Positions 12,958 to 32,000 of a stretch of DNA of 32,000 nucleotides are shown piece by piece. Below the pieces are notes generated by a model that was not told the origin of the DNA, ran no database searches, and saw only the letters and a list, made by a program, of their open reading frames with translations. Position numbers and translations under genes: made by a program. This stretch comes from Candidatus Saccharimonadota bacterium (GTDB lineage Archaea; Nanohalarchaeota; Nanosalinia; Nanosalinales; Nanosalinaceae). The stretch is taken from assembly GCF_029232205.1 (NCBI RefSeq), contig NZ_CP107255.1:570001-602000 (forward strand). The letters run 5' to 3'. Numbering within the stretch: the first letter of the stretch is position 1; every line of letters starts with the position of its first letter.

Positions 12958-13073
12958 TATAAATCAATCCTCCGAGAAAAACTTCCACGGATTAAAACTT
13001 ACTAAGCAAAAATAGCTCTCTTATCTTTAAATAGGTATGTGGAACTCCGGCGCATAGGCCTTGCCAGCAGTAT

Positions 13074-13271: not shown

Positions 13272-13310
13272 CTGTAGAGCTAGAGCCTCTACAGTGTCTT
13301 TCTGTTTTTG
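13272..13310 (+). terminator. perfect 8-bp hairpin (CTGTAGAG-n7-CTCTACAG) followed by a T-rich tract (tgtctttctgtttttg)
   Basis: The inverted repeat is read directly from the sequence. The T-run resembles an archaeal oligo-T terminator. It lies about 170-200 nt downstream of the TATA-like box at 13074. Confidence 0.25.
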
Positions 13311-13401
13311 AGGTGAACAATTCAATGACACTACAACACACAATTACAACATCACGCGACGCAAAAACGCGATCAAAACCTTTCAATAACTCTAGTTATC
13401 G

Positions 13402-14898: not shown

Positions 14899-14950
14899 AC
14901 CGGAGTTTTTGTCGGCCAGAAATTTATCTTTTACGTTGAAGATTCCTAGA

Positions 14951-14958
14951 ATTTAATA
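14951..14958 (+). promoter_or_regulatory. TATA-like box (atttaata) centred about 27 nt upstream of the ATG at 14982
   Basis: AT-rich octamer at the spacing expected for a leaderless archaeal transcript. Confidence 0.35.
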
Positions 14959-14981
14959 CAGTTTATCGTTAATTTTGGTTT

Positions 14982-16070: not shown

Positions 16071-16082
16071 CTTTTTTCTTCT
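16071..16082 (+). terminator. oligo-T tract (cttttttcttct) immediately after the stop codon
   Basis: Archaeal intrinsic termination typically uses T-runs. The tract starts at the first base after the TGA. Confidence 0.35.
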
Positions 16083-16155
16083 ACCCTTGTTTTGAGTTGT
16101 AATAAAAAGACAGAGCCCTAATTTCGTGTTATAAACGAGGATTTGATTTGTTAAT

Positions 16156-17265
16156 ATGAATTTTTCAGAGCTAGATATTTCAGATAGAACAGTTGATAGA
16201 CTTGCTAAACACGGTATTACTGAGCCTACTGAGGTTCAGCAAAAAGCTATTCCAAAAGTTTTCGAAGGTAAAGACATGCTTGTGGAGTCGGAGACCGGTT
16301 CAGGTAAGACTCTGGCATTTTCGCTTCCGATAATGGAGCAGGTTCACGGTAGTGAGAGTCAGGCCCTTGTGCTTTCTCCTACACGCGAACTAGCCAAGCA
16401 GATTACGCAGGAGATTGATTCCGCTGCTGGAAAACCTGTTGAAACAGTTACTATTTACGGAGGAGTAAGTTATGACCCTCAGGTTGAGGGCGCGAAGACC
16501 GCTAATATTATTGTAGGTACTCCAGGCCGTGTACTTGATTTACTGAGCAGTGGCCAGTTGAAAGTTGATAATCTTGACTTTTTCGTGCTGGATGAGGCCG
16601 ATCGCATGCTTGACATGGGTTTCCAGGACGAGTTAGAGGATATTATCAGTTATCTTCCTGATGAGCGTCAGAATCTTCTTTTCGGGGCCACTATTCCGCG
16701 TTCACTGAAGAAGATGTGTGATCGTTACGATATTGATCCTGAGACTATCAGAATCAAGAAGTCTCAGCATACTAGAAATCTTGATGAGAAGTACGTGAAT
16801 GCAAAGTCGAATAACAAGCTTTCGATGCTTTACACCTTCCTTGAGGACCGCGACCGTGATCTTTCCGTTGTTTTCTGTAAGACCAAGGCCACGACACGTT
16901 GGCTGGCTGACAAGTTGAGGAAGAACGGTATCGATGCGCAGGAATTAAACGGCGATATGAGTCAGAAGCAGAGGGAGAAGACTCTTGAAGAGTTTGCCAA
17001 CGCAGAGATCCGTGTTATTGTAGCTACAGATGTTGCGGCCCGTGGAATCGACGTTGATAGAGTAACTCACGTGTTCAACTACGATGTTCCTGATACCGCC
17101 GATACCTACACTCACAGGATTGGCCGTGCTGGACGTCAGGGCCGTGAAGGAGAGGCAATTACTCTTCTAGAGCCGAAGGATCACGATAAGTTCCGAAGGA
17201 TCAAGAAGAGGAAGAGCATTCCGAGAATTGAAGAGAAACCTAATCTCAAAGATGCCAATGTATAG
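16156..17265 (+). CDS. DEAD-box ATP-dependent RNA helicase (369 aa)
   Basis: Q-motif (PTEVQQKAIP), motif I ETGSGKT, Ia PTRELA, II DEAD, III GAT (a SAT variant), V/VI ARGID and HRIGRAGR. Confidence 0.95.
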   Translation: MNFSELDISDRTVDRLAKHGITEPTEVQQKAIPKVFEGKDMLVESETGSGKTLAFSLPIMEQVHGSESQALVLSPTRELAKQITQEIDSAAGKPVETVTIYGGVSYDPQVEGAKTANIIVGTPGRVLDLLSSGQLKVDNLDFFVLDEADRMLDMGFQDELEDIISYLPDERQNLLFGATIPRSLKKMCDRYDIDPETIRIKKSQHTRNLDEKYVNAKSNNKLSMLYTFLEDRDRDLSVVFCKTKATTRWLADKLRKNGIDAQELNGDMSQKQREKTLEEFANAEIRVIVATDVAARGIDVDRVTHVFNYDVPDTADTYTHRIGRAGRQGREGEAITLLEPKDHDKFRRIKKRKSIPRIEEKPNLKDANV

Positions 17266-17324
17266 TAAATAGGTTTGGAGAGAATCTTTACTCTTCTTTT
17301 CCTCTTCTAGAAAATATCTGTGAG

Positions 17325-18596
17325 TTATCTGAATTTCCTGGCCATCTGTTCTGCATGTTGGAGGACTTTTTCTCGACCTATCTCCACCATTTCTCCACTC
17401 TGTACTACTATGTTCCCGTCGACAATTACATCATCTACGCTACCGGAGAATGAGTATACAAGGTTTGAAATCAGGCCTTTTTTGCCGTGGATCGGAGTCA
17501 TGTCCGGAGAGTCAAGGCCTATAGTTATCATGTCGGCTTTTTTCCCGATTTCTATTGATCCTATCTCGTTTTGAAGGCCTAGTGCTTTTGCTCCGTTTCT
17601 TGTGGCCATGTCAAGTATCTGTTGTTCATCTATTCTTTCTGGCGATTTCTCTTTGTGGATTAGCGAGGCTGTCTTTGCCTCCTCAAACAGGTTTAGGTTG
17701 TTGTTTGATGCTACGCCATCTGTTCCTAGAGCTACGTTTATTTCTCTTTCCAGAAGTTCTGGTACATCCGCTACGCCAGATCCAAGTTTGAGGTTTGCTG
17801 CAGGATTGTGTACTACGCTGCCTCCTTTCTCTGAAAGCAGTTCTTTCTCTTTCTCCGTCAGCCATACTCCGTGGGCCGCGATTAAGTCTTCATTGACCAG
17901 ATCCAGCTCATCAAGGTATTCTAGAGGTGGTTTTTCATTCTCCTCTATTGATTCGTTTACCTCTTTTTCTGTTTCGGAGACGTGGATATGGTAGGAAGTA
18001 TTGAATATTTCCGAGCAGTCCTTGGCCTCGAGTAAAAGTTGTTTAGATGCAGTGTATACTCCGTGAGGAGCAAAGCACGTTGCAATTCTTTCGTGGCCCT
18101 GATACTTCTCAACTAGTTCAATTCCTTCATTCAGCCTCCAGTCTCTTTCCCCATCGACATCCAGAAGGCCTCTTCCCAGCATTGCTCTTATTCCTGTCTG
18201 GTCTACTGCCTCTGCTACCTGATCCATATGATCATACATGTCGTTGAAGGTTGTCGTGCCGGTAGAAAGCATTTCAATACATGCAACCAGAGCACCAATA
18301 TATGCATCTTCGGCCTCCAACTTTTCCTCCGCTGGGAATATGTCTTCATGCAGCCAGTCCTCCAGCTCTTTATTGTCGGAGATTCCTCGTAGAAGAGTCA
18401 TTGATGCGTGAGTATGCGAGTTTATCAGGCCTGGCATCACTACCTTGTTACTGCAGTCGACTACTCTGTGGTCTCCTACAGGCATTTCATGGCCTATGCC
18501 TGCAATCCTGTCCCCGTGAATCAGCAGATCTACATTTTCCAGTATCTGTCTATCATCATTCTGAGTCACCAGGTATCGAATATTTTTGAGAATCAT
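17325..18596 (-). CDS. mtaD: amidohydrolase-superfamily deaminase, 5-methylthioadenosine/S-adenosylhomocysteine deaminase-like (423 aa)
   Basis: Metal-binding NSHTHASMTLLRG. HIHVSET, AHGVWL and ALGTDG motifs are typical of the MtaD/SsnA/guanine-deaminase group. Confidence 0.85.
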   Translation of the reverse strand: MILKNIRYLVTQNDDRQILENVDLLIHGDRIAGIGHEMPVGDHRVVDCSNKVVMPGLINSHTHASMTLLRGISDNKELEDWLHEDIFPAEEKLEAEDAYIGALVACIEMLSTGTTTFNDMYDHMDQVAEAVDQTGIRAMLGRGLLDVDGERDWRLNEGIELVEKYQGHERIATCFAPHGVYTASKQLLLEAKDCSEIFNTSYHIHVSETEKEVNESIEENEKPPLEYLDELDLVNEDLIAAHGVWLTEKEKELLSEKGGSVVHNPAANLKLGSGVADVPELLEREINVALGTDGVASNNNLNLFEEAKTASLIHKEKSPERIDEQQILDMATRNGAKALGLQNEIGSIEIGKKADMITIGLDSPDMTPIHGKKGLISNLVYSFSGSVDDVIVDGNIVVQSGEMVEIGREKVLQHAEQMARKFR

Positions 18597-18636
18597 AAAG
18601 CTGTTATCCGGGCCTGAAGCTTAAGAATAAATCCTT

Positions 18637-19269
18637 CTACAGTGAGCCTGAGGAGAAGATCAGAAGCATTAATGTGGTGATAAGTAGTCCTGTAGAGGTT
18701 ATTCCTGTAATCAGCATTCTCAGTTTGACGTCGTCTTCTTCAATGTTTTCGTTGAGGAAGATCAGTACTGCGGGAGCTGCAAAACCTGCTAGAACCGGTA
18801 TTGCCTGAACAGGCCATGGAATAAACGACAAACTTCCTACACCTAATGCCAGGACTCCTCCAAGTATGAAAGAGGTGACAGCGCTCGCGATCAGGACAAG
18901 GCCTTCATCCAGTTCAATCTGATATCCATAGGAAAGATATCCTGATGATCCAAGAGTTACCAGAAGAGGTATCAGGCCTATTACAAATGTAACCGGTGTA
19001 AGGCCGCCATCGCTGACTGCATTTCTCTGCTCTCCTCCTGAGAAATTATATGCATCAAGATTACCGCATTCAACTTTTTCTACCTGCTCTCCGAAGAGCG
19101 TGGCATTGTAAGGAGAACCTGTAATATCTACAAAAGCACCATCCGAGGCCACATCACACTGAGCCCTCAAACTATCCTTGTAATCTTCCGCAGCTGACTG
19201 TGCCGATACTACCGAGGCCAGAGATACAAAAACTATCAGAAGCGATGCCAACTTGGCCTCTTTTCTCAT
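18637..19269 (-). CDS. membrane protein with signal peptide, small Cys-containing ectodomain and 3-4 TM helices (210 aa)
   Basis: Signal peptide MRKEAKLASLLIVFVSLASVVSAQS. Hydrophobic stretches in the C-terminal half. TATA-like ttaaataaatag on the minus strand about 30 nt upstream. Confidence 0.75.
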   Translation of the reverse strand: MRKEAKLASLLIVFVSLASVVSAQSAAEDYKDSLRAQCDVASDGAFVDITGSPYNATLFGEQVEKVECGNLDAYNFSGGEQRNAVSDGGLTPVTFVIGLIPLLVTLGSSGYLSYGYQIELDEGLVLIASAVTSFILGGVLALGVGSLSFIPWPVQAIPVLAGFAAPAVLIFLNENIEEDDVKLRMLITGITSTGLLITTLMLLIFSSGSL

Positions 19270-19445
19270 GTATAATCCCTTTTTCAGCCGCCTTAAATAA
19301 ATAGAGGGAATATATGTAGCTATACTCTAAACATATCCCTATTCTGTGATTAACAGGACAAAATTCACCAACTTCCAACCACTCCAAAACTAAGTACAGA
19401 ACATATTTGATTGATAACTCAAAGCAATCATCGAAAGATAAGGAT

Positions 19446-20471
19446 TTAATCCCCAGGCCAGTTTGGATAATTAACCGAAGGAGAGTCTTCTTGCCTGAGC
19501 ATTAATTTCTCACCAAGTTCTTTATCCAAACCTAGGATATCAAAAATTATCAGCTCAACTATCTTCTTGAGCTGCATTGGAGCTCTTTTATTATTCATGA
19601 GTTTTTCAGAGTCCATTTTATGGGCAATTGGATTCCTTATACTCCTATGAGTTTCTATTATATCTTCAATCTCTTCCTGTTCAAATTCAAAATCCAGCTC
19701 ATTGTTTAAGTACATTAAGATTTTGTGCTTTATGCTGTGTTCATACAGAAATTTGGCCTTAAACCGATGTTTGAAGAATTTTGCCTTTTGGGAATCCAGT
19801 TCCTGTTCTAAAAACCTATCTAATTTTTCTTTCAGATCCTTTTGCTCATCTCTGGAAAGTATTCTATTTTCCTCATTAGGTCTGACATATTTATCATAAT
19901 TCCTATTTGCCTGTTTCTCTAACAGCAGCCATCTCATTAGAAATTTTATCTCAAAAAGAGCTCCCTTCTCTAAGGAATAGAGGTAAACACGGATTGTGGA
20001 CAGAATATTTTGGCGCTCTTCTTCACTGGCATCAATTAAGGTTTCCAAGGCAACATCAACAAACTCAGAAATATCGCGCGTAAAGAACGCGCCTTTAGTA
20101 GAGATCCCCTCTATCAATGGAATGTTCTTGTTTGATATTCTCGGAAGATTTTTGGAAGCTACAGACCTAGACTTGTAACCCTTGCTGTATTTGTATCGAC
20201 CGTGATAGAATACATTTCTCCTATATGCAAAAGAAAAAATAAAGCTCAGCCAAGTTGCCAGATTCTTAGCTTTTTCCTCATCTCCAGTTTTTATGTAGCA
20301 TTTAGCAGTCTTCCAATTTTTATCTCTAAACTTAGAATTAAAATCTCTCCTACCCTCTTCAAAATCTTCGGCTACTTTAAGAGGTTCAATTCTCACACCC
20401 TCTGCTTCATATACGTAAACCTCTCCTTCAGGCAAATATAAATTAAAAAAATCAAAAACATATGTCGTCAA
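19446..20471 (-). CDS. HEPN-motif protein (341 aa), Abi/ApeA-like candidate RNase; compositionally foreign
   Basis: TTG start. C-terminal ETHRSIRNPIAHKMD carries the canonical HEPN R-N-x-x-x-H signature (R279..H284). The protein is K/R-rich and near-neutral, unlike the acidic neighbours. The DNA is visibly more AT-rich and has no AGGCCT copies. Confidence 0.75.
   Translation of the reverse strand: MTTYVFDFFNLYLPEGEVYVYEAEGVRIEPLKVAEDFEEGRRDFNSKFRDKNWKTAKCYIKTGDEEKAKNLATWLSFIFSFAYRRNVFYHGRYKYSKGYKSRSVASKNLPRISNKNIPLIEGISTKGAFFTRDISEFVDVALETLIDASEEERQNILSTIRVYLYSLEKGALFEIKFLMRWLLLEKQANRNYDKYVRPNEENRILSRDEQKDLKEKLDRFLEQELDSQKAKFFKHRFKAKFLYEHSIKHKILMYLNNELDFEFEQEEIEDIIETHRSIRNPIAHKMDSEKLMNNKRAPMQLKKIVELIIFDILGLDKELGEKLMLRQEDSPSVNYPNWPGD
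19620..19637 (-). other. codons for the R-N-P-I-A-H HEPN catalytic motif
   Basis: Verified codon by codon on the minus strand: agg aat cca att gcc cat. Confidence 0.6.
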
Positions 20472-20484
20472 ATCCTACACCTAG

Positions 20485-20497
20485 AAAAAAGAAAAAA
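20485..20497 (-). terminator. oligo-T tract (TTTTTTCTTTTTT on the minus strand) directly after the proS stop
   Basis: Read directly from the sequence; this is the archaeal terminator-type signal. It is the only sequence between proS and the SD-like AGGTG of the HEPN gene. Confidence 0.35.
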
Positions 20498-21976
20498 TCA
20501 GTAGTTCTTGGCGAAGTAGGCCCATCTTTCGGCTTTTTCTCCACAGACCGCGCACTCACCGTCAATATGGTCTTCTTTTTCTTGGATTGTTGCTGGTTTG
20601 GAGTCTTCTTCGAACGGCAGGACTACGATTTCTGCGCTGACTTCATCCTTGATCTCTTCTTCGCAGCTTTCTTTTCCACACCACCGGGTTTTGACGTATC
20701 CACGATTTTTGCCGATTGTCGCCAGAATCTCGTTTTTGGATTCTGCTTCGCGGATGTTTTCCTGTAGGTATTCTTCCAGTTCGTTGTAGAGTGATTCCTG
20801 AATGTTTTCCAGTACTTCTTCTGCTTCTTCGACGAATTCTTCTCTGTCCTGGCCCATTTTTTTCTCCCCGTTGTCTCTCCTGACTGGTGTAACTGCGTTG
20901 TCTTCTACTTCGTTAGGCCCGATCTCTACCCTGAGAGGTACTCCTTTCAGTTCCCATTCGTTGAACTTGTATCCTGGTGTTCTGTGGTCGCGGTCGTCAA
21001 GGTCTACTCTTAGGCCTTTTTCTTCCAGTTCTTCAGTTACTTCTTCTGCGTATTCTACGACTTCATCTCTGTTGTCTTCCTGATAGATAGGTACGACGAC
21101 CACTTGTGTCGGTGCAACACGAGGAGGCAATCTAAGACCGTCATCGTCACCGTGTGCCATGATCAAGGCACCGATCGTCCTCGTAGAGAGGCCCCAGGAG
21201 GTTGTCCACGCGGTTTGAGTTTCGGAGTCTTCATCCTCAAACTCGATTTCAAATGCCTCGGCAAAGTGCTGGCCTAGCTGGTGTGAAGTTCCTGACTGAA
21301 TGCTTTTTCCATCCGGCATCAAGGTCTCGATTGTTGTAGTATATTTTGCACCAGGGAACTTGTCATGCTCCGGCTTGTAACCAAGAATTGACGGAATAGC
21401 AAGATGATCTTCAATTACTTCCTGATACTGTTCGAGGCGGAGCATTGTTTCTTCATCAGCACCTTCTTCTGTTGCATGTGCTGTGTGGCCTTCCTGCCAG
21501 AGGAACTCTCGAGTCCTGAGGAAAGGCCTTGTGTCGGTTGCTTCCCATCTTACGACGTTGGCCCACTGGTTGAGTCTTAACGGCAGGTCTCTGTGAGATC
21601 GGACTTCGTCGGCCATGTATGGTGCGATTATGCTTTCGGATGTAGGCCTTACCGCAAGTCTTTCCTCAAGTTCTTTGTCTCCTCCATGTGTTACCCACGC
21701 GACCTCTGGATCAAATCCTTCTACAATATCTTCTTCTTTTTCCAGGTAGCTTTCAGGTATGAATAGTGGGAAGTATGCGTTTTCTGCTCCTGTATTTTCT
21801 ATCTTAGTATTGAAGTCTTCTTTGATGCTTTCCCAAATCTTCATTCCGTACGGTTTGATGATCATGCATCCTTTGACAGGTGCGTAGTCCGCCATTTCTG
21901 CTTTCTGTACTACCTGTGTATACCATTCTGAAGGATTCTGATCTTTCTTTACCGTGATTCCGAGTTCCTGGCTCAT
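20498..21976 (-). CDS. proS: prolyl-tRNA synthetase, archaeal/eukaryal type (492 aa)
   Basis: Class II aaRS motifs (FRxE-type TREFLWQEGHTAH, GTSHQLG). Anticodon-binding domain. C-terminal Zn-binding ProRS-C domain ending ...CAVCGEKAERWAYFAKNY. TATA-like ctatttaaag about 32 nt upstream. Confidence 0.95.
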   Translation of the reverse strand: MSQELGITVKKDQNPSEWYTQVVQKAEMADYAPVKGCMIIKPYGMKIWESIKEDFNTKIENTGAENAYFPLFIPESYLEKEEDIVEGFDPEVAWVTHGGDKELEERLAVRPTSESIIAPYMADEVRSHRDLPLRLNQWANVVRWEATDTRPFLRTREFLWQEGHTAHATEEGADEETMLRLEQYQEVIEDHLAIPSILGYKPEHDKFPGAKYTTTIETLMPDGKSIQSGTSHQLGQHFAEAFEIEFEDEDSETQTAWTTSWGLSTRTIGALIMAHGDDDGLRLPPRVAPTQVVVVPIYQEDNRDEVVEYAEEVTEELEEKGLRVDLDDRDHRTPGYKFNEWELKGVPLRVEIGPNEVEDNAVTPVRRDNGEKKMGQDREEFVEEAEEVLENIQESLYNELEEYLQENIREAESKNEILATIGKNRGYVKTRWCGKESCEEEIKDEVSAEIVVLPFEEDSKPATIQEKEDHIDGECAVCGEKAERWAYFAKNY

Positions 21977-22049
21977 ACATTGGTTTCTGAAGGCAACGTT
22001 TTTCTATTTAAAGAAAAGAGAGGTAGGAAAATGAAGATTTGGAAGTATG

Positions 22050-24974
22050 TTATGGTCGGGCCATGAAGAGGTAGGCTGTGCTGGATAGTAGCATGAGGAC
22101 TACGATCTGTGTGAGGCCTATTCCTGGCACTGCTTCTCCTGAGCCCTGTGTGCTGGAGATTGTCTGGTTGATTGGTTCTGTGACGTTTACTCTGATGCTG
22201 TCTGATCCTGTGATTGTTCCGTCTTCGGATTCTGCGTAGACTGTGAGTTGTGTGTTGTCTACGTTCTGGTTTCCTCCGTACAGGCTCATTGTGTATGTTC
22301 TTGATGATTCTGGGCCTAGTGTTACCTGGAAGGTGTCGCTTTTTGTGGATTCATCCTGTGAGAAGAATGACCATGGGTCGTTCCAAGGTGTTGAGGTTGA
22401 GTCTCTGAGCTCTACGTTGAATGTGAGTTCTGTGTTTTCTACGTTGATTAGCTGGAACTGTGCGAGCCTTGAGGATCCTCTTGGTACCTGTACTTTGTCT
22501 TTTCTGAATACTACAGGCCATTCTTCGTACCAGGAACCTCCGTAACATGAGATTACTCTTGTATCTCCTCCCAGGTCGAAGTCTATCTGTGCTCCGGGCT
22601 GGTATAGTTTTCTTTTAGAGGTTCCTACTTCGGAATAGTGTTCTCCATCTAGTATGCATGCTTCGCTGTTTGATGCTACTCCGACTACAGAGTTGTTGGT
22701 ATCACATAGACTTGTGACACAGTCCTGTGTAACAAGATATTCTGAGTCATCGTCTCCTCCACAGAATCCTGGTGTTGCTATTGTATCGTTTGTAACACCG
22801 TTTCTCTGGTCTGTCGAACCTGTTGGTACTGGGCTTGTTGACCCCAGACTGTTTGATGAAGTGAAGGTCTGTTCTGGCCTTGAGTCAATATTTCTTGATG
22901 TTTCTCCTTTCAATGCTCTCTGCTCTTCGATAAACTGGTTGAAGTCATCATCTATACCGCCCTTGAAAGCTGCAGGATGCTCAGCGATTTGACCTTCGCT
23001 AAACCATCTTATGCCTTCAGGCCCGTAAACTGTGTTCTCTCGGCAAAGCCTCTCCTTGAAGTCCTGATCATACCATCTTGCGACTTCGTCGTCGTCTACC
23101 ATTGCGCAGACTTCTTTATCATTTTTGGCTCTTCCAAAGTCCTCATCAGGCTCGTCGGTCTGACGGTACTCCTCTCTTTCGAATATCTTTCTGCCTTCAG
23201 CGCTTGTATCAACACATACGTCCTGTGAATCAGCACATGCATATTTGCCGTCTCCTGCTATAGATCTCTTTGACTCTCCCATCTCTTCGAGCAGGTATTC
23301 TCTCCTATCATCTCCACACATAGGAGGTTCTAGCAGTGGAGTAGTTTCACCGACAGTACCATTACTGTTTATCTCTTCATCAACCACGTTATCTCCATCA
23401 TTATCCTCGCCATCTGCTTCCCCTTCAAAGTATACGTTACCATACATGACGTACGACCGCGGTGATCCATACCCGGAACGGTAGGTTATACCTGCGTTGT
23501 CATCAAGATTAAATCCTAATCCCATATCAGGGCCTGTAATATCGATATTGTAGACTAGCTTAGGCTGCCATCCGCCTACAATCAGATCATTCATAGAACG
23601 GATGTCATCAGGATCAATCCATACTCCATCCCCTTCCCTAACTTCTCCGAAAGCTCCGGTAAAGTTATCTGCCGCTATAGCTGCGAAAGAGTTACCAAAT
23701 ACTTTCGAGGTCTTGGAAACACTGTCAGAAGTAAATGCTCCTGGATCGCTTGGAACTGTTCGGAAAGAGCCCGAGTAATCCCTGTGGTAGTAGGTACCTC
23801 CATCGCTGCTGTATGTAGAGTGGTAAAGACCTCCCTGTCTTATCTGTGCATCCTGACCTGTAGGACCTGGAGGATAGGCCTCTCCTCTGTTGGAAATAGA
23901 CCAGTTAAGATGCCTTGTAATAGCCCATTGATCTGCGCTTCCCTGAGAGCCATCAGAATCAGTCCAGATACCGTAGTCAGCAGGATTATAGGCGCTGGTA
24001 TCCATTCCAGGCTCCAGCTGGTTGCTTGACTCTTCAAGCTTGTTTACATAACCCTGATAGTAGTAATTAGTGCCACTTGCACTGTCGCCAGTAGGCATGT
24101 AATCCTCATCTCTCACGCCTACTCCAGTATAAGTCTTCTCTGCGGCCTTATCAACCGTAAAACTCCAGGTATCAGTAGTACGGCACTGACCTGTCCCATC
24201 ACAGGCCTCAATAAACCAGTTGTAAGTTTCGCCATCATTGAGGCCTTGCCAGTACGCTGTAACGGTGTCGCCGCTTGCAATATCTTTTGACTCTATAAGA
24301 GAACCGTCAGCCTGTTTGAACTCTACAGTCATCGAGTCATCATTTGGATCTGTAATTCGCACTGATAGATTGGTTGTTGTTCTTGTAACAGTTGCACCGT
24401 CCTCAGGAGTTCTGAAAGACGGCGTGTTCGGTTTATCTGCGCTTGAGGTAACTTTAACATCATCGATCCAGACCTGCCAGGATCTATCCTCTGGCTTGCT
24501 GCCACAGAAGCTAGAACTACTGATGCTCCCTGCTGTTAAAGTAAAATCTTTATCTGCTGACTCTACATTAGCCTCGTATGATCTCCAGCCTGAATCATAG
24601 CTGTTCCCTGACCGAACTCTATCAATAAGCTCTCTTACACCATTGGAATCCTCAATAAAGATTGTTCCAGTACCCCAGCTATCAAGCTGAATCCTGTAGT
24701 CAAACTCAAGGTATTGTGGCTGCCTGTTAAAATCAAAGGTCTTGCTTATACCTCCCTCACCACATATCTCATAACGATTTCCGGCCGTAGCTGATTCACC
24801 TGGAGTAGAGTAGCTTCCTGTAGTGTCAGCAGTACATGTATCCATCGCACGTCCTGTAGAAGAGCAACTCCAATCACTTTGAGTGCCGGAGAAATCCTCC
24901 TCATACATCTGTCCTGTCGCCGGAGCTGCAAAAAGCGCGACCATCAACAGGACTGTGATCAAGGCCTTTTTCAC
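22050..24974 (-). CDS. very large exported surface protein (974 aa) with an FN3/Ig-like domain, two Cys-framed modules, a CARDB-like C-terminal domain and a C-terminal membrane anchor
   Basis: GTG start overlapping the upstream gene's TGA (GTGA). Signal peptide MKKALITVLLMVALFAAPATGQ. FN3-like segment PNTPSFRTPEDGATV...YNWFIEACDG...WSFTVD. Asp-rich GEADGEDNDGDNVVDEE. C-terminal VPGIGLTQIVVLMLLSSTAYLFMARP. Confidence 0.85.
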   Translation of the reverse strand: MKKALITVLLMVALFAAPATGQMYEEDFSGTQSDWSCSSTGRAMDTCTADTTGSYSTPGESATAGNRYEICGEGGISKTFDFNRQPQYLEFDYRIQLDSWGTGTIFIEDSNGVRELIDRVRSGNSYDSGWRSYEANVESADKDFTLTAGSISSSSFCGSKPEDRSWQVWIDDVKVTSSADKPNTPSFRTPEDGATVTRTTTNLSVRITDPNDDSMTVEFKQADGSLIESKDIASGDTVTAYWQGLNDGETYNWFIEACDGTGQCRTTDTWSFTVDKAAEKTYTGVGVRDEDYMPTGDSASGTNYYYQGYVNKLEESSNQLEPGMDTSAYNPADYGIWTDSDGSQGSADQWAITRHLNWSISNRGEAYPPGPTGQDAQIRQGGLYHSTYSSDGGTYYHRDYSGSFRTVPSDPGAFTSDSVSKTSKVFGNSFAAIAADNFTGAFGEVREGDGVWIDPDDIRSMNDLIVGGWQPKLVYNIDITGPDMGLGFNLDDNAGITYRSGYGSPRSYVMYGNVYFEGEADGEDNDGDNVVDEEINSNGTVGETTPLLEPPMCGDDRREYLLEEMGESKRSIAGDGKYACADSQDVCVDTSAEGRKIFEREEYRQTDEPDEDFGRAKNDKEVCAMVDDDEVARWYDQDFKERLCRENTVYGPEGIRWFSEGQIAEHPAAFKGGIDDDFNQFIEEQRALKGETSRNIDSRPEQTFTSSNSLGSTSPVPTGSTDQRNGVTNDTIATPGFCGGDDDSEYLVTQDCVTSLCDTNNSVVGVASNSEACILDGEHYSEVGTSKRKLYQPGAQIDFDLGGDTRVISCYGGSWYEEWPVVFRKDKVQVPRGSSRLAQFQLINVENTELTFNVELRDSTSTPWNDPWSFFSQDESTKSDTFQVTLGPESSRTYTMSLYGGNQNVDNTQLTVYAESEDGTITGSDSIRVNVTEPINQTISSTQGSGEAVPGIGLTQIVVLMLLSSTAYLFMARP
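22053..22133 (-). other. PGF-CTERM-like sorting/anchor tail (P-G-I-G + TM helix + short basic end)
   Basis: Last 27 residues are AVPGIGLTQIVVLMLLSSTAYLFMARP. Haloarchaeal PGF-CTERM has P-G-F, then a TM helix, then basic residues. Here Phe is replaced by Ile. Confidence 0.45.
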
Positions 24975-27900
24975 TGGTACCCCACCAACTGCCAGAAGAA
25001 GCTGAAGAAGACCGGAGTCTTCCCCTCTGTCTGAGTTTCCTGATCATCGCAGCCAGTAAGCAGAGGCCCACAGTTGTCTTCAAGAGTTACTCCGATGTTT
25101 TCTCCGGAGCCCTGGCCTTTAGGATTGTAGTCAGGATGGTAAGGATTTTCGTTCTGACGCCAGTAAAATGCTATCTGTGAGGCGTTATCAGGATCTCCTC
25201 TCTGACTGCTATCAATTAGATCATGGCCATTGCCACTGCTTCTCAAGTATTCGTTTACTCTTTCGTTGTCAAGATCGTACCATTCTCCACCGACCTCTTC
25301 AACGGTACCATCGTCATCATAGTCATAGTTATCATACGTTACATCATCACCAGGATCATCGGCTGGAAGAGTCTCCTCGTAGACAATACCGTCCTGCGTA
25401 AAGCTTTCACCACTGCTATCGATCGCAAGACAGACTTCTTTATCAGGAGAATAACCTCCTTCCTCATAATCCGAGTAAGCCTCTGTACCAACGGTCCTGA
25501 CAGTTCCCTCAGGAACATCTTCTCCATACCACAGACAATCAGTAACCCTGTCAGCAGTACCTTCAAGGTGATGGCTCTTAATAGGGCCTTCATTAACTTC
25601 AGGGCCCTCCATCGCTATCCAGAACTCTTCTGTAGTATCTCCAGCACACCGCTTATCTGAACTCTGTGTAGGGCTGTCGGAGTCAGATCCATAGTTTGAA
25701 CCGATTGCTGCATCTGGATCAAGTTCCTGGAACATCTTGCAGACTCCAAGAGACTGATTGGTATCCTGAATATTGCTTTCGAAAGTTACTGCTGTGGGAT
25801 AGGCCTGGCTGCCTGCCTGATAGGAAGGATCTGTCGGGTTATCCCAGTTGTTGATATTCCGAGGCCTTATATCCAGAGCTCCTACACAGTGAGTGAAAGG
25901 ATCGCCGCAGCCATTAGTATTGATACTTACATGGCCCAGCGCATCTGCAGGCTGAACAATATCCATAGCGCCACCGCTGTTCGTCTCAGTATTCATGAAC
26001 CTGTTACTGACTCCCTGAATCTCAACCTGGCCGTTTCCAAGATAACCTCTTCTCTGCAGAATTGCCATATAACCATCGGACTGGCCCTGAGGCCCGTCAA
26101 CATCCCATGATTGGAAGTAATCTCTGACAGATTCAAATGCATCACCGTCTACCCTCATATGGTATGAGCTGGAGGAAATGGCTTCGTCATTACCTAGCAT
26201 ATTGTTATCAGTATCTACAGCATAGGCATAGTAGGAATCACCGTTGAAGGCGTTGTACTTAATATTTGAGCGGGTGTAAGCCTCATCTCCATACTTGAAA
26301 GTGTCGCCCTCAAAGAGTGCATCAGTAGGGAACATTGGTGCGTAAGAAGGATTCTCCGCAGGATTCAAATCGAATACTTTCTCAGTATGAAGCTCAAGAT
26401 CCTCGTACCGGTAGGTGATTGTGTTGCTTGTCTGGCCCGTAGCAATATCCTGATTTGAAATCGGCCCGACAGTATCAACTGAAGGACTATCACTACAGCC
26501 AATGCTACTATCGCAAGATTCTTCTTCTGTTTCACTCAGACACGAGTCGTCATCTACTTGTTCGGTCTCGTAACCTGGATGATGAGTTACTTCTACAGAT
26601 AGCTGATTTAGATTTGTACTTTCCTTACTATGTTGATGGCTTCCGCTGCTGTCTGCATAATACTGCTCGTTATCATTGGTTGAAACAGTGGTAGTTGTCT
26701 CGCTCTTTAGAGTGTATTTTGTATCAGTATCTTGATCTATACTTGTACACTTCTCGGTACCCGTACCAGAGCAGTTAGCTCCAGAACACTGATCAACAGA
26801 ACCTCCGTCCTCGCCCCAAGTCTCCACATTCTTATCACCAGTAAGATCATAGTCTGTAACTGATGCATCTGATTCCGAAGAACCGATATAAGACTCTCCA
26901 ACTTTTTCCGGATATACCATCCAAAGCTCATCAGGTACACTATCCCCGTCATCATCTTTCAGATAGTAATCAGGAACATCCTCCCATTCCTGATCCTGGA
27001 CAACCTGATCATCAACCTCACCAGCATCAGCCTGTGTGCCACTCTGAAGGTCGGCCGTGTACGGATCAGAACCACTGATATCATCTGTTTTCTGGCCCTG
27101 TGCCTCTGGGGCTATAAGTCCTGATCCGGAGTTACTAAACTTGTATTCAATAGTATCGTCAGTGTCATCGTTACTGTTCTTTGAATTTAGATATTCTCCA
27201 TTGTTTGCATTATTGTTAGAATCGCCAATAGACACACCGTTAGCATTATTGGCATCCCATTGACCAATATTACTGTTAAATCGATCAGAGAGAGTCTCTG
27301 AGGACTGGCTCTTAGTCGTTCCAGCATCGTCAGGAAGACCGTAGTCCTCAGGACAGTCAAGGTTATTCTCATCACCTCCTCTTACCGCATCACCACACTG
27401 AGAGCCATCGCCGGTAGTAGTATCATCATGTGGAGCATCAATCAACTCTGCAGAACCATCTTCTACAGCAGTAGTCGTGGAACCTGGCATGTTTCCTTCA
27501 TGACGGGACTCGCTAATACTTATTGTCTCACCTCTCAAAACCCCCGCAGCCCAGTCATTAGAACCTTCAACATAGGTCTCATTAATTTGATCAGTATCCA
27601 GAACCTGGTCAGGACTGACAGTTACAGATGAACCGTTCTGAATTACCTCTGCACCGTAGAAAATAGAGGAGTCATCTTCTGTTGGAGATGAAAGATACTG
27701 GCCGAAGACCCAGGAAGCATCCAGGTCGTAGATATTGGCCTCCGAATTATCATATTCATAAGGTGGAGAACACCCTGGATCCGGGCCGCTAGCTCCAGCC
27801 TCTTGCCAGTTAGGAGTTCCATCATTATCACTGTCAGCTCCCTCTCCATCAACCAAACCATCACCATCATTATCATTTCCATCCAAGCATGCGGAAGGTT

Positions 27901-28063
27901 GTGCAGGAGAATCTGGCGGAGAAGTGCCGGTATCCTTAGCGCCGCCAGTGAATTCATAAGAAGAAACAAGGCCAGCAGCGGTCAAGAACAAAAGGACTAC
28001 AACTAGAGCTTTTCCTACATTCATACAATTCATAGGTGAGACCCTGAATAAAAAACCTCTCAA
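24971..28063 (-). CDS. very large secreted acidic protein (up to 1030 aa) with an N-terminal Asp-rich metal-binding-type motif and a C-terminal Cys-framed module
   Basis: The maximal ORF starts at TTG 28063. The more likely start is ATG 28024 (MNVGKALVVVLLFLTAAGLVSS, a signal peptide), which has a TATA-like ttttttatt about 27 nt upstream. D/S/T/G/N-rich with scattered Cys. Stop overlaps the start of the 974-aa gene. Confidence 0.85.
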   Translation of the reverse strand: MRGFLFRVSPMNCMNVGKALVVVLLFLTAAGLVSSYEFTGGAKDTGTSPPDSPAQPSACLDGNDNDGDGLVDGEGADSDNDGTPNWQEAGASGPDPGCSPPYEYDNSEANIYDLDASWVFGQYLSSPTEDDSSIFYGAEVIQNGSSVTVSPDQVLDTDQINETYVEGSNDWAAGVLRGETISISESRHEGNMPGSTTTAVEDGSAELIDAPHDDTTTGDGSQCGDAVRGGDENNLDCPEDYGLPDDAGTTKSQSSETLSDRFNSNIGQWDANNANGVSIGDSNNNANNGEYLNSKNSNDDTDDTIEYKFSNSGSGLIAPEAQGQKTDDISGSDPYTADLQSGTQADAGEVDDQVVQDQEWEDVPDYYLKDDDGDSVPDELWMVYPEKVGESYIGSSESDASVTDYDLTGDKNVETWGEDGGSVDQCSGANCSGTGTEKCTSIDQDTDTKYTLKSETTTTVSTNDNEQYYADSSGSHQHSKESTNLNQLSVEVTHHPGYETEQVDDDSCLSETEEESCDSSIGCSDSPSVDTVGPISNQDIATGQTSNTITYRYEDLELHTEKVFDLNPAENPSYAPMFPTDALFEGDTFKYGDEAYTRSNIKYNAFNGDSYYAYAVDTDNNMLGNDEAISSSSYHMRVDGDAFESVRDYFQSWDVDGPQGQSDGYMAILQRRGYLGNGQVEIQGVSNRFMNTETNSGGAMDIVQPADALGHVSINTNGCGDPFTHCVGALDIRPRNINNWDNPTDPSYQAGSQAYPTAVTFESNIQDTNQSLGVCKMFQELDPDAAIGSNYGSDSDSPTQSSDKRCAGDTTEEFWIAMEGPEVNEGPIKSHHLEGTADRVTDCLWYGEDVPEGTVRTVGTEAYSDYEEGGYSPDKEVCLAIDSSGESFTQDGIVYEETLPADDPGDDVTYDNYDYDDDGTVEEVGGEWYDLDNERVNEYLRSSGNGHDLIDSSQRGDPDNASQIAFYWRQNENPYHPDYNPKGQGSGENIGVTLEDNCGPLLTGCDDQETQTEGKTPVFFSFFWQLVGYQ

Positions 28064-28138: not shown

Positions 28139-28210
28139 TTGTCTATATTGAAAAGAAGAGGATTTCTAGCCGCAACAGGAACCGCAATCGCAACAGGCCT
28201 AGCCGGATGT
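28139..28210 (+). other. Tat signal peptide plus lipobox
   Basis: MSILKRRGFLAATGTAIATGLAGC contains the S/T-R-R-x-F-L consensus plus L-A-G-C, the classic haloarchaeal Tat-lipoprotein arrangement. Confidence 0.7.
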
Positions 28211-29830
28211 AGTGGTGTAACAGGAGGAAATAATAATAATAACCGCGAAGGTTCTACCAGCAAAACCAATATCTCTGTAAGTATCTCTACTGAGGCCGAA
28301 CCCTCACAGCTACCTTCTATCTGGAACGATCAGAGTATCGAAGACTTTCAGGCAGAGTTCTCCGTTGAGACCAGCGGGGGCCCAACACAGGCAACAGTCT
28401 CAAATGGAAAAGTAGAGATCAACCAGGAATCAGAGCAGTGGAACAGCAACACAGTAACAGTACAGCCAGGCCAGATGAACTCTGGAGAACAAGAATTCAC
28501 AGCAACAGCCGAGAAAAACGGAACACAGGCCCAAGATACTACAACAGCCACCAAACCAACTCCTGGCAACTACAAAGTCGACGTAGTGCCAGAGAGAAAC
28601 GAAGAACTCCGAAGCACAATCGAAAACAACTCAGACGAAGAAGATTACTTGGAGGCCCGCGGCAACTTCGTCGAACAAGACCCAGTATTCGATACTTACA
28701 GCAGCCACAAAGCCGTAGGATTCGACAAACTCGGAATCGACCTAGTCGCACGAGAATGGAGACACGACAACGACTACGAAAGCCTAGAAACTGGTAGTCC
28801 AGAAGCATCCCGAGAATTCATCCAAAGCATAGGCACCGACACCGGAAACCCTGATATACAGGCAATAAAAAACGGAAACTCAGGAACAACTTGGTACCCA
28901 AATGGCAACTTCAGCCAGAGAGACGCAGGACACTTCGACTACCAAAAATTCGCCAACGCACAAACAGTAGGAGAAGCACTCGACCAAGTGCATCCATACT
29001 ACTTCAACTGGCAATCAGACATACTCGGCAGAGAACCAACCTCCGCAGTCGACTTCATCGACGCACCAGTCCTCGAACAGGCCATCGAACAGAAAAACAA
29101 TAATGACTTGGAGGTACATGCCTGGGACTTCGACCTCGATGAACACGGAAACGGCCTCATCTACGGAAAGAACGCGGATGGCAGCGACGAACTCCGCATC
29201 ATGGAGACAGTCACCAACCCAGTAACAGCATCACCAGCAAATGTCCACGAACAACTACACCCACTAGTTGAGGACTCAAACTACCTCAACCCAGAACACG
29301 ACGAATTCAACCGGTACTGGCACCCACTCAGATTCGGATGGGAAGAACACAGCAACAGCACACGATGGAACTTCGAAGAAGAGAAACGGCGAGCAAGCCA
29401 AATGATTCAAAACATCGCCACTTCTGGACGCCTAGCCCGCACATCAGGCGAAGGCTCCGGAATGGAAACAACAGAAACAGTAGCACCAACAACAGAATAC
29501 CTCCAAGACTTCACAGAAAAACTGAGAAACTACAACCAAAACGATGCAGAATTCCAGCAACTACACAACCAAGCCAAAATAGCCAACGAACTGGTTAGAA
29601 GAGACAGTAAAGAAAATTTCGTAATCTATGGCGATACGGAGAATCCGCAGTACGCGGTAGTAGAAGATGATGAAGTTATTGAGGATATCTGGGAGGATGA
29701 GGATGGCCAGTATGATGATTTCAACCAGTTCCTCCGCGACAACCCTTCATACTCAATGAGCACAGAAGAAATCGATGCCACACTAGAAGGAGAACAAACA
29801 GAAGACCTCAGCCAGCAAACGCTGGCCTGA
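28139..29830 (+). CDS. Tat-exported lipoprotein of unknown function (563 aa)
   Basis: TTG start, or the in-frame TTG at 28148. Twin-arginine motif KRRGFLAA followed by the lipobox LAGC (Cys24). Thr/Gln/Asn-rich linker and an acidic C-terminal tail. No further Cys. Confidence 0.85.
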   Translation: MSILKRRGFLAATGTAIATGLAGCSGVTGGNNNNNREGSTSKTNISVSISTEAEPSQLPSIWNDQSIEDFQAEFSVETSGGPTQATVSNGKVEINQESEQWNSNTVTVQPGQMNSGEQEFTATAEKNGTQAQDTTTATKPTPGNYKVDVVPERNEELRSTIENNSDEEDYLEARGNFVEQDPVFDTYSSHKAVGFDKLGIDLVAREWRHDNDYESLETGSPEASREFIQSIGTDTGNPDIQAIKNGNSGTTWYPNGNFSQRDAGHFDYQKFANAQTVGEALDQVHPYYFNWQSDILGREPTSAVDFIDAPVLEQAIEQKNNNDLEVHAWDFDLDEHGNGLIYGKNADGSDELRIMETVTNPVTASPANVHEQLHPLVEDSNYLNPEHDEFNRYWHPLRFGWEEHSNSTRWNFEEEKRRASQMIQNIATSGRLARTSGEGSGMETTETVAPTTEYLQDFTEKLRNYNQNDAEFQQLHNQAKIANELVRRDSKENFVIYGDTENPQYAVVEDDEVIEDIWEDEDGQYDDFNQFLRDNPSYSMSTEEIDATLEGEQTEDLSQQTLA

Positions 29831-29855: not shown

Positions 29856-32000
29856 TTAGTTTCCGTTTTTCAGGTAGTCAGATATTTCACTGGCTCCCAT
29901 CTTGTCGAAGCTGTAGCTCAGGTTCTGCTGCCACATCTCATTCATCTTCTCGACCTGGCTGCTAATTACTCTCCGAGTGAGATCTGATTTCTCTACGTCT
30001 AGAGGGAACGAACAACCTCCACACACTGCCTGCTCATCAAACCAGGATTTCTGTATGTTGTCATTGAAAGAACCTTTTAGCAAGCTTTGCGCACGAGTCT
30101 GCGCCTTAGCTACATCATCAGTAGATCTCACATCAAGATTTCCTTCACCAGTAATTACTGCGCCGTTGGAGTTGGTAAACTCGAGGCGGCAGGAATACAC
30201 ATTGGTATTTATCTTTCCAACAAGAGGGACTGGCACCTGAGGGTTAGTTCCTACCCCAGTAACCTCCTTCGCAAACCAATCTTCCTCGCGTGTAGAAGGA
30301 TCCAGAGAAGGCCTCTCTGAAAGCTCTCCATCCCAGCATAGAGCCCTGATAGACTCTATTGTAGCAGCCTGATCATTATCAGCATCCTCCTTGGCTTCAT
30401 AATAGGTAGTAAGGAAACTGCTACTTGTTCTAAACTCATATGGCATTATGAAGAATCCTGCAGTATCAGGATTTTCGTTTCCTGTCGGTTCAAATGCGTA
30501 GGCATCAAGATCCCACTGAATATCACCAGTACACTCCCAAAACTGGCCTGTATATCCCCATTGGAGGCCTGGTTCGCAGGTTGGGTAGAATCCTCCGTCG
30601 AAGACACTGTCTCTTAGTACTGATACATCGTTTTCTTGAATGTTTTCTGCGGTTCCTAAGACTCCTGCAGTGTATTGGCCTGTTGCGTTGCTTGGGTTCC
30701 ATACTTGTCTGATTGCTGTTTCGTCGGTGTCGTCTACTGCACGTGTGTATGCTTGTCCTCTTGAGATGTTGAGTTCGTCGTATTTTGAGGCGTTGTGTGT
30801 GTAGGGTCTTTGGTATGTGTCTCCAGTTGAGCCTTCTAGGTATCTTAGTTCTGCTGCGTGGATATGGTCGAATCTTACGTTGTTGAATCCTGAGGTTGTT
30901 GCAAAGCTTGTTCCTTTGAACTCGGCATTTCCTAGAGGTATGGCTTCTTTAGGCACGTAGTACTTGACTGCTAGTGCTGTTTCTGGTGCTGAAGTGTTGT
31001 GGAATGTTCCTAACCGGCAGTCGCCATCTCCAGTACACCTTCTCTGTGGATCACCGTAGCCAGGATAAGTTCGTTGACGCATGTCGTAGAGGCATGCTGT
31101 GTCTTTCTCTGTTGTAACTGGGTCGTTGCCGGTGTAGCTGTTTTCTACAGCATCATATCCTTCACAGAGAAAGATATCGGGCTCTCCGGTACGGACACTT
31201 GAGTAGACGTTGCCATAATCACAGTCAGTGGTGGCATCCGTAAAGGCGGCTCCTGAGTTTTGATCTGCAAACACCACTTTAACGCCGTCACTTTCCCTGA
31301 TGCCTACAGTCGGATCTGCACAGTTATTTTCCACATAGGGCAACCAAGAGTTTGGTTGATTTCCTCTCCAGTCTTGCCCATTTCCTAGCACATCGCACCT
31401 GAATCGACCGTTATCTGTATCTACTATTTCTCCATCCATAGAGCCACGGCAAATATGGAACAACCTATTGCCTTTCAGTATTTCTGTATCCGGGCTGTAT
31501 GTTGAACTATCATCGTGAGCTGGCGTACAGGAGTCAAAGTTATTTTCGAAGGCCGTGCATGCGCCTTTATCCTGACCTATAACATATTCCATGTCTCCGA
31601 AGTTCTGATCCCACACATCCTGTGCACCTAGGTTATCTCCCAAGTTGTGGTTGTTTGTGAAAACTTCTGATGTAGAACCTATATCCGATAGAGAAGTAGC
31701 CTCATGACCTAGTATTTCACCTGGTTGAGGCCTATATCTTCCGTAGTCATCCTCTCCATCAGGCCAGGCTTTCCAGTCTGTCTCTTGAAGAAGTATATCT
31801 CCCTGATTTATGTCGTTTACTCCGTGAATATTGCTGTTTCCAGGACTGTTGTAGAAAGGCTCCCTATCGTTCGTTAAAATAAAGTCTCTTATTTTATTCG
31901 CATTTACGTCCATCTCAACATATAGATATGCTCCTTTATTTGCACTTACACGGTCTTTAGGCTCTACAGTTAGATCAAAGGTACCTACTGTAAAGGACTC
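29856..32000 (-). CDS. large Cys-rich extracellular-type protein, 5'-truncated by the window edge (more than 714 aa)
   Basis: The ORF track starts it at ATG 31913, but I translated 31914-32000 in the same frame and found no stop (...ESFTVGTFDLTVEPKDRVSANKGAYLYVE-MDVNANK). The listed N-terminus has no signal peptide, so the gene most likely begins beyond 32000. More than 20 Cys, acidic, N-x-S/T sequons. Confidence 0.8.
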   Translation of the reverse strand, partial: ESFTVGTFDLTVEPKDRVSANKGAYLYVEMDVNANKIRDFILTNDREPFYNSPGNSNIHGVNDINQGDILLQETDWKAWPDGEDDYGRYRPQPGEILGHEATSLSDIGSTSEVFTNNHNLGDNLGAQDVWDQNFGDMEYVIGQDKGACTAFENNFDSCTPAHDDSSTYSPDTEILKGNRLFHICRGSMDGEIVDTDNGRFRCDVLGNGQDWRGNQPNSWLPYVENNCADPTVGIRESDGVKVVFADQNSGAAFTDATTDCDYGNVYSSVRTGEPDIFLCEGYDAVENSYTGNDPVTTEKDTACLYDMRQRTYPGYGDPQRRCTGDGDCRLGTFHNTSAPETALAVKYYVPKEAIPLGNAEFKGTSFATTSGFNNVRFDHIHAAELRYLEGSTGDTYQRPYTHNASKYDELNISRGQAYTRAVDDTDETAIRQVWNPSNATGQYTAGVLGTAENIQENDVSVLRDSVFDGGFYPTCEPGLQWGYTGQFWECTGDIQWDLDAYAFEPTGNENPDTAGFFIMPYEFRTSSSFLTTYYEAKEDADNDQAATIESIRALCWDGELSERPSLDPSTREEDWFAKEVTGVGTNPQVPVPLVGKINTNVYSCRLEFTNSNGAVITGEGNLDVRSTDDVAKAQTRAQSLLKGSFNDNIQKSWFDEQAVCGGCSFPLDVEKSDLTRRVISSQVEKMNEMWQQNLSYSFDKMGASEISDYLKNGN

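Follow-up and report, generated by a model that had tools for sequence, protein, structure and literature searches.

A lineage-specific strand skew in Candidatus Nanohalovita haloferacivicina BNXNv and its probable end at an imported, mosaic surface-gene cluster

What does it record when the composition of a DNA strand changes within a single intact gene? The question is raised by a 32,000-nucleotide stretch, referred to here as the window (positions 570,001 to 602,000 of contig NZ_CP107255.1). It is DNA of Candidatus (Ca.) Nanohalovita haloferacivicina strain BNXNv, a cultivated nanohaloarchaeal ectosymbiont of Haloferax (PMC10443357, PMC10266531), which is kept as a binary culture and whose genome is closed (PMC10443357); the chromosome measures 1,046,959 bp. 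An earlier note, made from the sequence of the window, had described an abrupt reversal of silent-site composition at about 23.3 kb, inside an open reading frame (ORF) of 974 amino acids (aa), and had offered two readings, namely a terminus-type inflection of a chromosome-scale skew, or the recombinational replacement of a surface-gene cassette by DNA that evolved in the opposite replicative orientation. Comparison with relatives leads to a different picture, regarded here as probable with room for doubt, in which a resident strand skew abuts a recently imported mosaic surface-gene cluster and the crossover lies at ~22.7-22.9 kb.

The relatives compared were strain M3_22 (CP046106; L001), Ca. 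Nanosalina VS9-1 (L005), the Logan contigs L002 and L003, and the ENA contigs L004 (k141_118076) and L007. The surface cluster is covered by L001, L002 and L007 only; L004 stops at the start of the 1030-aa gene. The window was aligned codon by codon with orthologs in five relatives, and the relatives' mean was subtracted from the indicator of G or T on the window + strand, the difference being termed the codon-matched shift.

A strand skew specific to the BNXNv lineage

Left of the boundary the + strand is rich in G and T at silent sites whatever the gene orientation, as the earlier note had claimed, and this asymmetry was seen over 22.8 kb of BNXNv DNA. The A/C fraction at silent sites of the coding strand (coding A/C) is 0.370±0.014 in the four plus-strand genes vs 0.682±0.007 in the 12 minus-strand genes, and mirror-image values are found in every class of site. 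The four-fold AT skew of the coding strand ranges from +0.26 to +0.89 in the minus-strand genes and from -0.36 to -0.68 in the four plus-strand genes; C occupies 56-100% of the two-fold pyrimidine sites in the minus-strand genes vs 33-43% in the plus-strand genes, and A occupies 48-86% of the two-fold purine sites vs 22-41%. As the skew is present separately at four-fold, two-fold pyrimidine and two-fold purine sites, amino-acid content is not its cause. The aCPSF1 gene, for instance, has 39 GAC and 12 GAT codons for Asp, and the hand tallies of Asp codons given earlier for this gene, the 1030-aa gene, the two halves of the 974-aa gene and the lipoprotein gene were all found correct on recounting. 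A two-class codon-usage model, with optimal genes using A/C-ending codons and the rest unselected, was rejected: in the housekeeping genes on the plus strand, G is favoured over A at two-fold sites and T over A at four-fold ones, which is not so in their orthologs.

The skew belongs to the BNXNv lineage. The codon-matched shift is +0.161±0.010 over 10.3-22.75 kb, with +0.167±0.016 in the block of plus-strand genes and +0.11 to +0.21 in the blocks of minus-strand genes. Coding A/C in L001, L004, L005 and L007 lies at 0.51-0.59 in either orientation, and the absolute orientation effect across 18 nanohaloarchaeal loci is 0.002-0.088, vs +0.142 in the left part of the window; values for three single genes are included in Table 1. 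At the four-fold sites of the + strand in the skewed part, T rises from 0.30 in the relatives to 0.48 in BNXNv, while A falls from 0.27 to 0.17 and C from 0.23 to 0.16; at two-fold sites T/(C+T) rises from 0.42 to 0.62 and G/(A+G) from 0.61 to 0.72.

The lineage-specific excess is driven mainly by C->T on the + strand. Singletons assigned to the window branch in four housekeeping genes comprise 71 C>T vs 18 T>C, 31 A>G vs 18 G>A, and 25 G>T vs 6 T>G, counts that are approximate, being parsimony on diverged sequences. For the same branch, + strand C>T:T>C is 85:24 in the resident DNA vs 45:57 in the cluster (Fisher p = 5e-7), and the enriched strand of the resident DNA bears the substitutions typical of damage to single strands (C>T, A>G, G>T). 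Such a spectrum is expected from damage to the strand that is more often single-stranded during replication. From this spectrum we infer a link of the asymmetry with replication. The BNXNv lineage has acquired a strong strand-asymmetric substitution bias, independent of the direction of transcription, by which silent sites of the window + strand received T at the expense of C and A, and G at the expense of A.

Two observations concern the relatives themselves. Singletons in the housekeeping genes of L004 run opposite to those of BNXNv, with 89 towards A/C vs 41 towards G/T in terms of the window + strand; its composition nevertheless has almost no orientation effect (-0.012). At positions 12075-14566 of the VS9-1 locus, a local rearrangement has left the DEAD helicase and amidohydrolase genes each strand-flipped relative to the window, M3_22 and L004, with NicX between the M20 peptidase and DEAD helicase genes, and codon usage there shows no orientation effect.

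A strong skew in BNXNv that is absent in its congeners is apparently an unreported observation. Both BNXNv papers (PMC10443357, PMC10266531) make no mention of skew, origin or codon usage in BNXNv, and a search of the literature returned no paper relevantly connecting nanohaloarchaea with GC skew.

The end of the skew inside the 974-aa gene

The change of composition within the 974-aa ORF is real. The codon-matched shift is +0.211±0.031 at 22.05-22.75 kb vs -0.020±0.019 at 22.9-24.97 kb, with the best single change point at 22,920 (bootstrap 22,700-23,330), and the Asp codons of the same ORF number GAC 22/GAT 13 in 22.05-23.25 kb vs GAC 11/GAT 46 in 23.3-24.97 kb (Fisher p = 4e-5). It also survives control for amino-acid content, the maximum of the absolute cumulative sum (max|CUSUM|) being 68.5 as observed vs 12.8±3.8 with permuted synonymous codons (p <= 0.0002). 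What does not hold is an abrupt switch within ~200 bp at 23.3 kb: the G/T fraction of the + strand slides from 0.93 at 22.1 kb to 0.45 at 23.3 kb, a gradient of ~1.2 kb made up of a baseline gradient shared with relatives and a step in the lineage-specific component at ~22.9 kb. An intragenic change of composition therefore stands, but it is not a flip, since the minus-strand genes on the right lie near parity.

The affinity of the encoded protein switches at nearly the same place. Amino-acid identity between the window and the group of L004, L002 and L007 has its change point at 22,675 (bootstrap 22,500-22,730), with 0.65 to the left and 0.89 to the right. Identity between the window and L001 goes from 0.61 to 0.73 across this point, and identity between the group and L001 from 0.69 to 0.72, while nucleotide identity to L007 rises in the breakpoint zone from ~0.6-0.7 to 0.84-0.9. 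The switch sits in a peptide common to all lineages, VTNDTIATPGFCGGDDDSEYLVTQDC. For the housekeeping genes, each pair among the window, L004 and L001 is about equally distant (0.82/0.81/0.82 for the M20 peptidase, 0.88/0.87/0.88 for the DEAD helicase and 0.80/0.82/0.81 for the amidohydrolase), and the 3' end of the 974-aa gene is near-equidistant in the same manner, so phylogenetic affinity changes across the breakpoint. Its 3' 0.7 kb is accordingly assigned to the resident, skewed DNA and its 5' 2.2 kb to the imported mosaic. Alignment of the locus across relatives, which the earlier note had proposed, thus located a recombination breakpoint, and the core of its second reading, replacement by recombination with a breakpoint in a conserved gene segment, is supported by this identity jump and by the mosaic tracts described below. 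The 974-aa product (P0001) has a 100% match in Ca. Nanohalovita haloferacivicina, where it is annotated as a hypothetical protein, and the M20 peptidase and the 821-aa product point to this organism as well. A link between codon bias and protein conservation of the Akashi type was considered for this gene and rejected, its most biased part being the least conserved.

A stretch conserved among lineages is also a place where assemblers can mis-join, and the junction might in principle be a chimera of two co-cultured strains. This is hardly credible. A separately built Logan contig (run SRR26436575) is identical to 14,930-26,070 and runs unbroken through the junction, its 11,141 bp of overlap showing 0 mismatches, so that the join cannot be put down to the deposited assembly alone; moreover, the 974-aa ORF is intact across it, and the genome is a closed one from a binary culture (PMC10443357).

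Were the boundary a chromosome-scale skew inflection, that is, a point of fork convergence or an old rearrangement breakpoint, the DNA to the right would lie in the other replichore. The left side is indeed leading-strand-like in both gene orientations, and the cumulative G/T excess at silent sites of the + strand reaches its maximum at 23,301 and then declines for 7 kb. A switch of replichore, however, predicts a codon-matched shift of about -0.16 on the right, whereas the lineage-specific component falls to zero, being +0.006±0.009 over 22.9-32.0 kb (2,737 silent sites), with an upper 95% bound of ~15% of the resident value. The C>T:T>C ratio of the window branch given above is likewise not reversed on the right, the composition there is identical to that of the unskewed relatives, and protein identity jumps at the boundary, something that a terminus would not bring about. 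Past the cluster, the DUF1512 and SpoU genes of the relatives show an ordinary codon pattern again. Family searches of the Pfam/NCBIfam type found no Orc1/Cdc6 domain above threshold in 21 large ORFs of the window, near the boundary or elsewhere, and no origin-typical repeat families were found in 18-32 kb, a dif-like site not having been searched for. An inflection could lie hidden under or beyond the imported DNA, as the BNXNv data end at 32 kb; as the cause of the change observed here it is improbable.

The order of genes next to the breakpoint also differs among the lineages. In BNXNv the 974-aa gene is followed directly by the ProRS gene across a 73-bp spacer (21977-22049), and four relatives carry a HisRS-like class II tRNA synthetase gene between the two (Table 1); M3_22 has a DZR zinc-ribbon gene there in addition. 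BNXNv has therefore lost or moved the HisRS-like/DZR genes beside the skewed 3' end of the 974-aa gene.

Composition and ancestry of the surface-protein cluster

Right of the breakpoint lies a cluster made up of three-quarters of the 974-aa gene (its 5' part), the 1030-aa gene, a lipoprotein gene with a twin-arginine (Tat) signal, and the 821-aa gene. The large cluster proteins are acidic. The 974-aa and 1030-aa products have N-terminal signal-like sequences, and the former also has a C-terminal hydrophobic anchor. The lipoprotein product begins MKRRGFLAATG...LAGCSG, a twin-arginine signal with a lipobox (LAGC), and its true start is likely, on sequence grounds, the second TTG at 28148 (region 28139-28150), as in L002 and L007, with a GAGGG motif ~10 nucleotides upstream. 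A 685-aa ORF at the end of the window is the 3' part of the 821-aa gene (P0130, 100% identity), of which the first 136 residues, including the signal peptide, lie outside; a scan of genome contigs with the 685-aa protein yielded no relative.

Table 1. Positions of the features discussed, in window coordinates unless a relative is named
Feature	Positions	Strand	Remarks
Resident BNXNv DNA with lineage-specific skew	1..22750		+ strand T/G-enriched at silent sites in both gene orientations; islet at 18.6-20.5 kb excepted
M20 peptidase gene		+	coding A/C 0.53-0.59 in relatives vs 0.35 in BNXNv
DEAD helicase gene		+	coding A/C 0.51-0.55 in relatives vs 0.35 in BNXNv
Amidohydrolase gene		-	coding A/C 0.36-0.46 in relatives vs 0.61 in BNXNv
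AT-rich strain-specific islet, ORFs of 210 aa and 341 aa	18637..20471	-	GC 0.35-0.38; no family match; without skew
ProRS gene	20498-21976		L001 15282-16760; L004 9595-11130; L005 17526-19004
HisRS-like gene region	L001 13199-15163; L003 3932-5152; L004 11199-12428; L007 20510-21730
974-aa surface protein gene	22050..24974	-	intact ORF; predicted secreted, with C-terminal anchor; no Pfam/NCBIfam match
Recombination breakpoint zone, inside the 974-aa ORF	22675..22920	-	end of skew and switch of affinity
Surface-protein cluster without BNXNv skew, recombinational mosaic	22900..32000		codon usage that of unskewed relatives
1030-aa secreted acidic protein gene (predicted)	24971..28063	-	T/G-ending codons preferred in all lineages
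Tat-signal lipoprotein gene	28148..29830	+	A/C-ending codons strongly preferred in all lineages
821-aa gene, 3' 2.1 kb in the window	29856..32000	-	runs off the right end; strongly mosaic
Tract compared with L007	25.0-25.55 kb		nucleotide identity 90-99%, synonymous identity 0.82-0.93
Tract compared with L007	26.45-26.85 kb		nucleotide identity 51-74%
Tract compared with L007	29.89-30.56 kb		nucleotide identity 40-53%
Tract compared with L007	30.65-31.19 kb		nucleotide identity 84-98%
Tract compared with L007	31.19-31.33 kb		nucleotide identity 49-54%

The cluster does not show the reversed pattern once ascribed to it. GC content is the same on either side of the boundary (0.46-0.47), and the minus-strand genes on the right are near parity, with coding A/C of 0.41-0.59 and four-fold A of 0.375 vs T of 0.349 on the + strand; the one strongly biased gene is that of the lipoprotein, which is equally biased in unskewed relatives. 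Coding A/C of the 1030-aa gene (GAT 95, GAC 30) is 0.41 in the window, 0.37 in L002, 0.41 in L007 and 0.42 in L001; that of the lipoprotein gene (GAC 22 and GAT 8 outside its tail) is 0.77 in the window, 0.74 in L002 and 0.81 in L007. Four-fold and two-fold base fractions throughout the cluster are the same in BNXNv as in L007, L002 and L001, and these relatives share the intragenic codon pattern of the window from end to end: the coding A/C of the 974-aa gene climbs towards its 3' end in them too, and the return of a G/T-rich + strand at 30.5-31.0 kb, within the 821-aa gene, corresponds to a peak of A/C-ending codons at 30.53-30.95 kb that is common to them. Synonymous sites between window and relatives are near saturation, and the shared pattern is therefore intrinsic to the cluster genes and not the fading relic of one old event. 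The apparent reversal is thus the gene-specific codon usage of the cluster beside a skewed host.

This result bears directly on the supposition of a similarly skewed donor whose DNA, at equilibrium in the opposite replicative orientation, took the place of the cluster. The raw silent-site skew does have the opposite sign on the right, the + strand G/T fraction being 0.48 in the minus-strand genes and 0.23 in the lipoprotein gene. Yet the minus-strand genes are near parity, and relatives with the same cluster order have equal values and flanks without any strand effect, so that a donor of this kind is very unlikely and that part of the earlier second reading is not upheld. Its variant, a local inversion of 23.3-30.5 kb, was rejected because 18-32 kb contains 0 inverted-repeat pairs and because intact ORFs, colinear with those of L001, L002, L004 and L007, rule out an inversion whose ends lie within genes.

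Alternatively, the cluster might be resident and as old as its flanks, with codon selection (through expression, translation speed in secretion, or mRNA structure) resisting the bias. Peaks and troughs of bias are conserved by position among orthologs in spite of near-saturated synonymous sites, so some persistent force acts on codon choice in the cluster genes, and the lipoprotein gene keeps 0.74-0.81 A/C in all lineages. Peaks of A/C-ending codons at matching positions are also seen in orthologs of DUF1512 (L001 and L002) and in the 821-aa homologs of L002 and L001, and such conserved peaks point to position-specific selection on codon choice. To hide the BNXNv bias, however, selection would have to cancel it exactly in opposite directions, towards T/G in the 1030-aa gene and A/C in the lipoprotein gene, over 2,700 silent sites; it leaves the identity jump and the 90-99% tracts shared with L007 unexplained, and housekeeping genes including those of the proteasome subunit and aCPSF1 enjoyed no such protection. 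Selection is accordingly an improbable explanation of the missing skew.

Gene exchange is indicated by the patchwork of identities (Table 1). Tracts near-identical to L007 are embedded in DNA of 75-85% identity, the neighbouring DNA as a whole being 40-85% identical, and the lipoprotein gene varies between 47 and 91% nucleotide identity to relatives; near-identity within diverged DNA marks the cluster as a mosaic. The relatives are mosaic among themselves as well, identity between L002 and L007 in the 821-aa gene ranging from 0.25 to 0.96. The order of the 821/843-aa, lipoprotein, 1030-aa and 974-aa genes is the same in L002 and L007, and L001 keeps it with the lipoprotein gene reduced to an 82-aa remnant; the L004 contig confirms it no further than the 974-aa gene and the beginning of the 1030-aa gene. 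This conserved order indicates replacement rather than insertion.

Taken together, the missing bias, the discordant affinities and the near-identical tracts argue that the cluster was imported by homologous recombination; because it lacks the bias despite many window-specific substitutions, those substitutions arose in an unskewed genome. The surface cluster would be a hot spot of homologous recombination among nanohaloarchaeal lineages, and the BNXNv copy would have come, probably in several pieces, from relatives without the skew, with the left crossover in the conserved stretch of the 974-aa gene. Import would have followed most or all of the accumulation of the skew, too recently for the cluster to acquire the BNXNv signature.

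Several points weigh against this explanation. The searched collections contained no close donor for the cluster as a whole, the best relatives having 81-86% protein identity in the 974-aa gene and 67% in the 821-aa gene, and synonymous identity reaches only 0.5-0.7 across most of the cluster; with no near-identical donor, the recency of the import rests on the missing skew. The window branch of the 1030-aa gene has a mild G/T-ward excess of 82:47, similar to 168:112 in L001 and 46:33 in L007. The change points at 22,675 and 22,920 coincide only within their bootstrap ranges. A genome-wide, replication-linked skew is extrapolated from 22.8 kb, and a fork moving rightward would meet most of the genes left of the boundary head-on, an arrangement that is unusual for strongly skewed bacteria.

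Neighbouring features, known parallels and biological meaning

Beyond the cluster, Pfam matches in the window comprise LamG-domain proteins, a VRR-NUC nuclease, aCPSF1/FttA, a proteasome subunit, an M20 peptidase, a DEAD helicase, an amidohydrolase and ProRS. Family searches with the cluster proteins, the islet ORFs and the 163-aa ORF mentioned below returned nothing above threshold. The classical marks of an integrative island (tRNA target, flanking direct repeats, integrase) were not found in the window: its tRNA and Rfam scans were empty, and no recombinase or integrase domain exceeded threshold in the 21 large ORFs, the DEAD helicase ORF holding a weak Phage_integrase match below cut-off.

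Being without the BNXNv strand skew, the AT-rich islet that separates the amidohydrolase gene from the ProRS gene was probably inserted recently; coding A/C of its minus-strand genes is 0.46. The same site is empty in L001 (M3_22) and holds other genes in L004 and L005, small ones in L004. In the adjacent ProRS, amino-acid identity is 0.94 between the window and L001 and 0.95 between L004 and L005, with 0.87-0.89 for the other pairs, and the proteasome subunit shows an identity of 0.95 between the window and L004. These sequence affinities suggest that gene exchange among nanohaloarchaeal lineages extends beyond the surface cluster.

An apparent gap of 776 bp between larger ORFs, at 7871-8642, is filled by two minus-strand ORFs of 138 aa and 106 aa, which account for its strongly negative AT skew; the 106-aa product resembles, as judged by eye, a small tRNA-binding protein with a Trbp111/CsaA-like domain. 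Next to it, at 8644-9135, a minus-strand ORF of 163 aa reaches a coding A/C of 0.91, with GAC 16 vs GAT 0 and four-fold A 34 vs T 2. This bias goes well beyond the local strand skew, and the product may be very highly expressed.

Strand-specific codon usage is reportedly known from Borrelia burgdorferi and Treponema pallidum (McInerney 1998; Lafay et al. 1999). As in these bacteria, codon choice in BNXNv is set mainly by the strand, one strand being G/T-rich and genes on the opposite strand mirrored. BNXNv differs in being a DPANN archaeon, in an AT skew that exceeds the GC skew, and in having congeners at ~80-95% protein identity without the skew.

The amelioration of horizontally acquired DNA, said to have been described by Lawrence and Ochman in 1997, offers a second parallel, in that the import in BNXNv is recognised as not yet at the mutational equilibrium of the recipient. 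Unlike in classic amelioration, the tell-tale is strand skew, with GC unchanged, and equal GC on both sides fits the result that island finders found no islands in BNXNv (PMC10266531). Unlike in classic acquisition, moreover, the import would be a homologous replacement of an existing locus with intragenic ends, and not an addition.

Replacement flexible genomic islands carrying cell-surface structures are reported by Rodriguez-Valera and co-workers from aquatic and hypersaline prokaryotes, and mosaic genes are familiar from pneumococcal penicillin-binding proteins and neisserial surface antigens. The BNXNv cluster resembles them as a syntenic surface locus exchanged via conserved flanks, with tracts of differing divergence; it differs from them in that its proteins have no family match and the tracts are sub-genic, at 0.15-1 kb. 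Strand-determined codon usage, amelioration and mosaic surface loci are thus all of known kinds, and BNXNv is a new and clean DPANN instance of them.

BNXNv is an obligate ectosymbiont, which makes host attachment a plausible target of diversification. Recombination between lineages makes the cluster proteins candidate factors in recognising the host or attaching to it, and their secretion signals and diversification suggest a part in host contact.

Silent-site strand skew is usable in BNXNv as a fine-scale marker of DNA residence time, and it flags the 9-kb surface cluster and the 1.8-kb islet as recent imports where the published analysis found no islands (PMC10266531). On a tentative view, held with less than even confidence, BNXNv may have recently evolved one of the strongest replication-strand asymmetries among archaea, through a change in replication or in the way deaminated or oxidised bases are repaired, whereas such asymmetry is practically absent from the nearest relatives sampled. 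If so, the skew would serve as a residency clock of sub-genic resolution, exposing an exchanged host-interaction cluster that standard island finders missed, and skewed BNXNv beside its unskewed congeners would be a natural experiment on the origin of replication-strand asymmetry in archaea.

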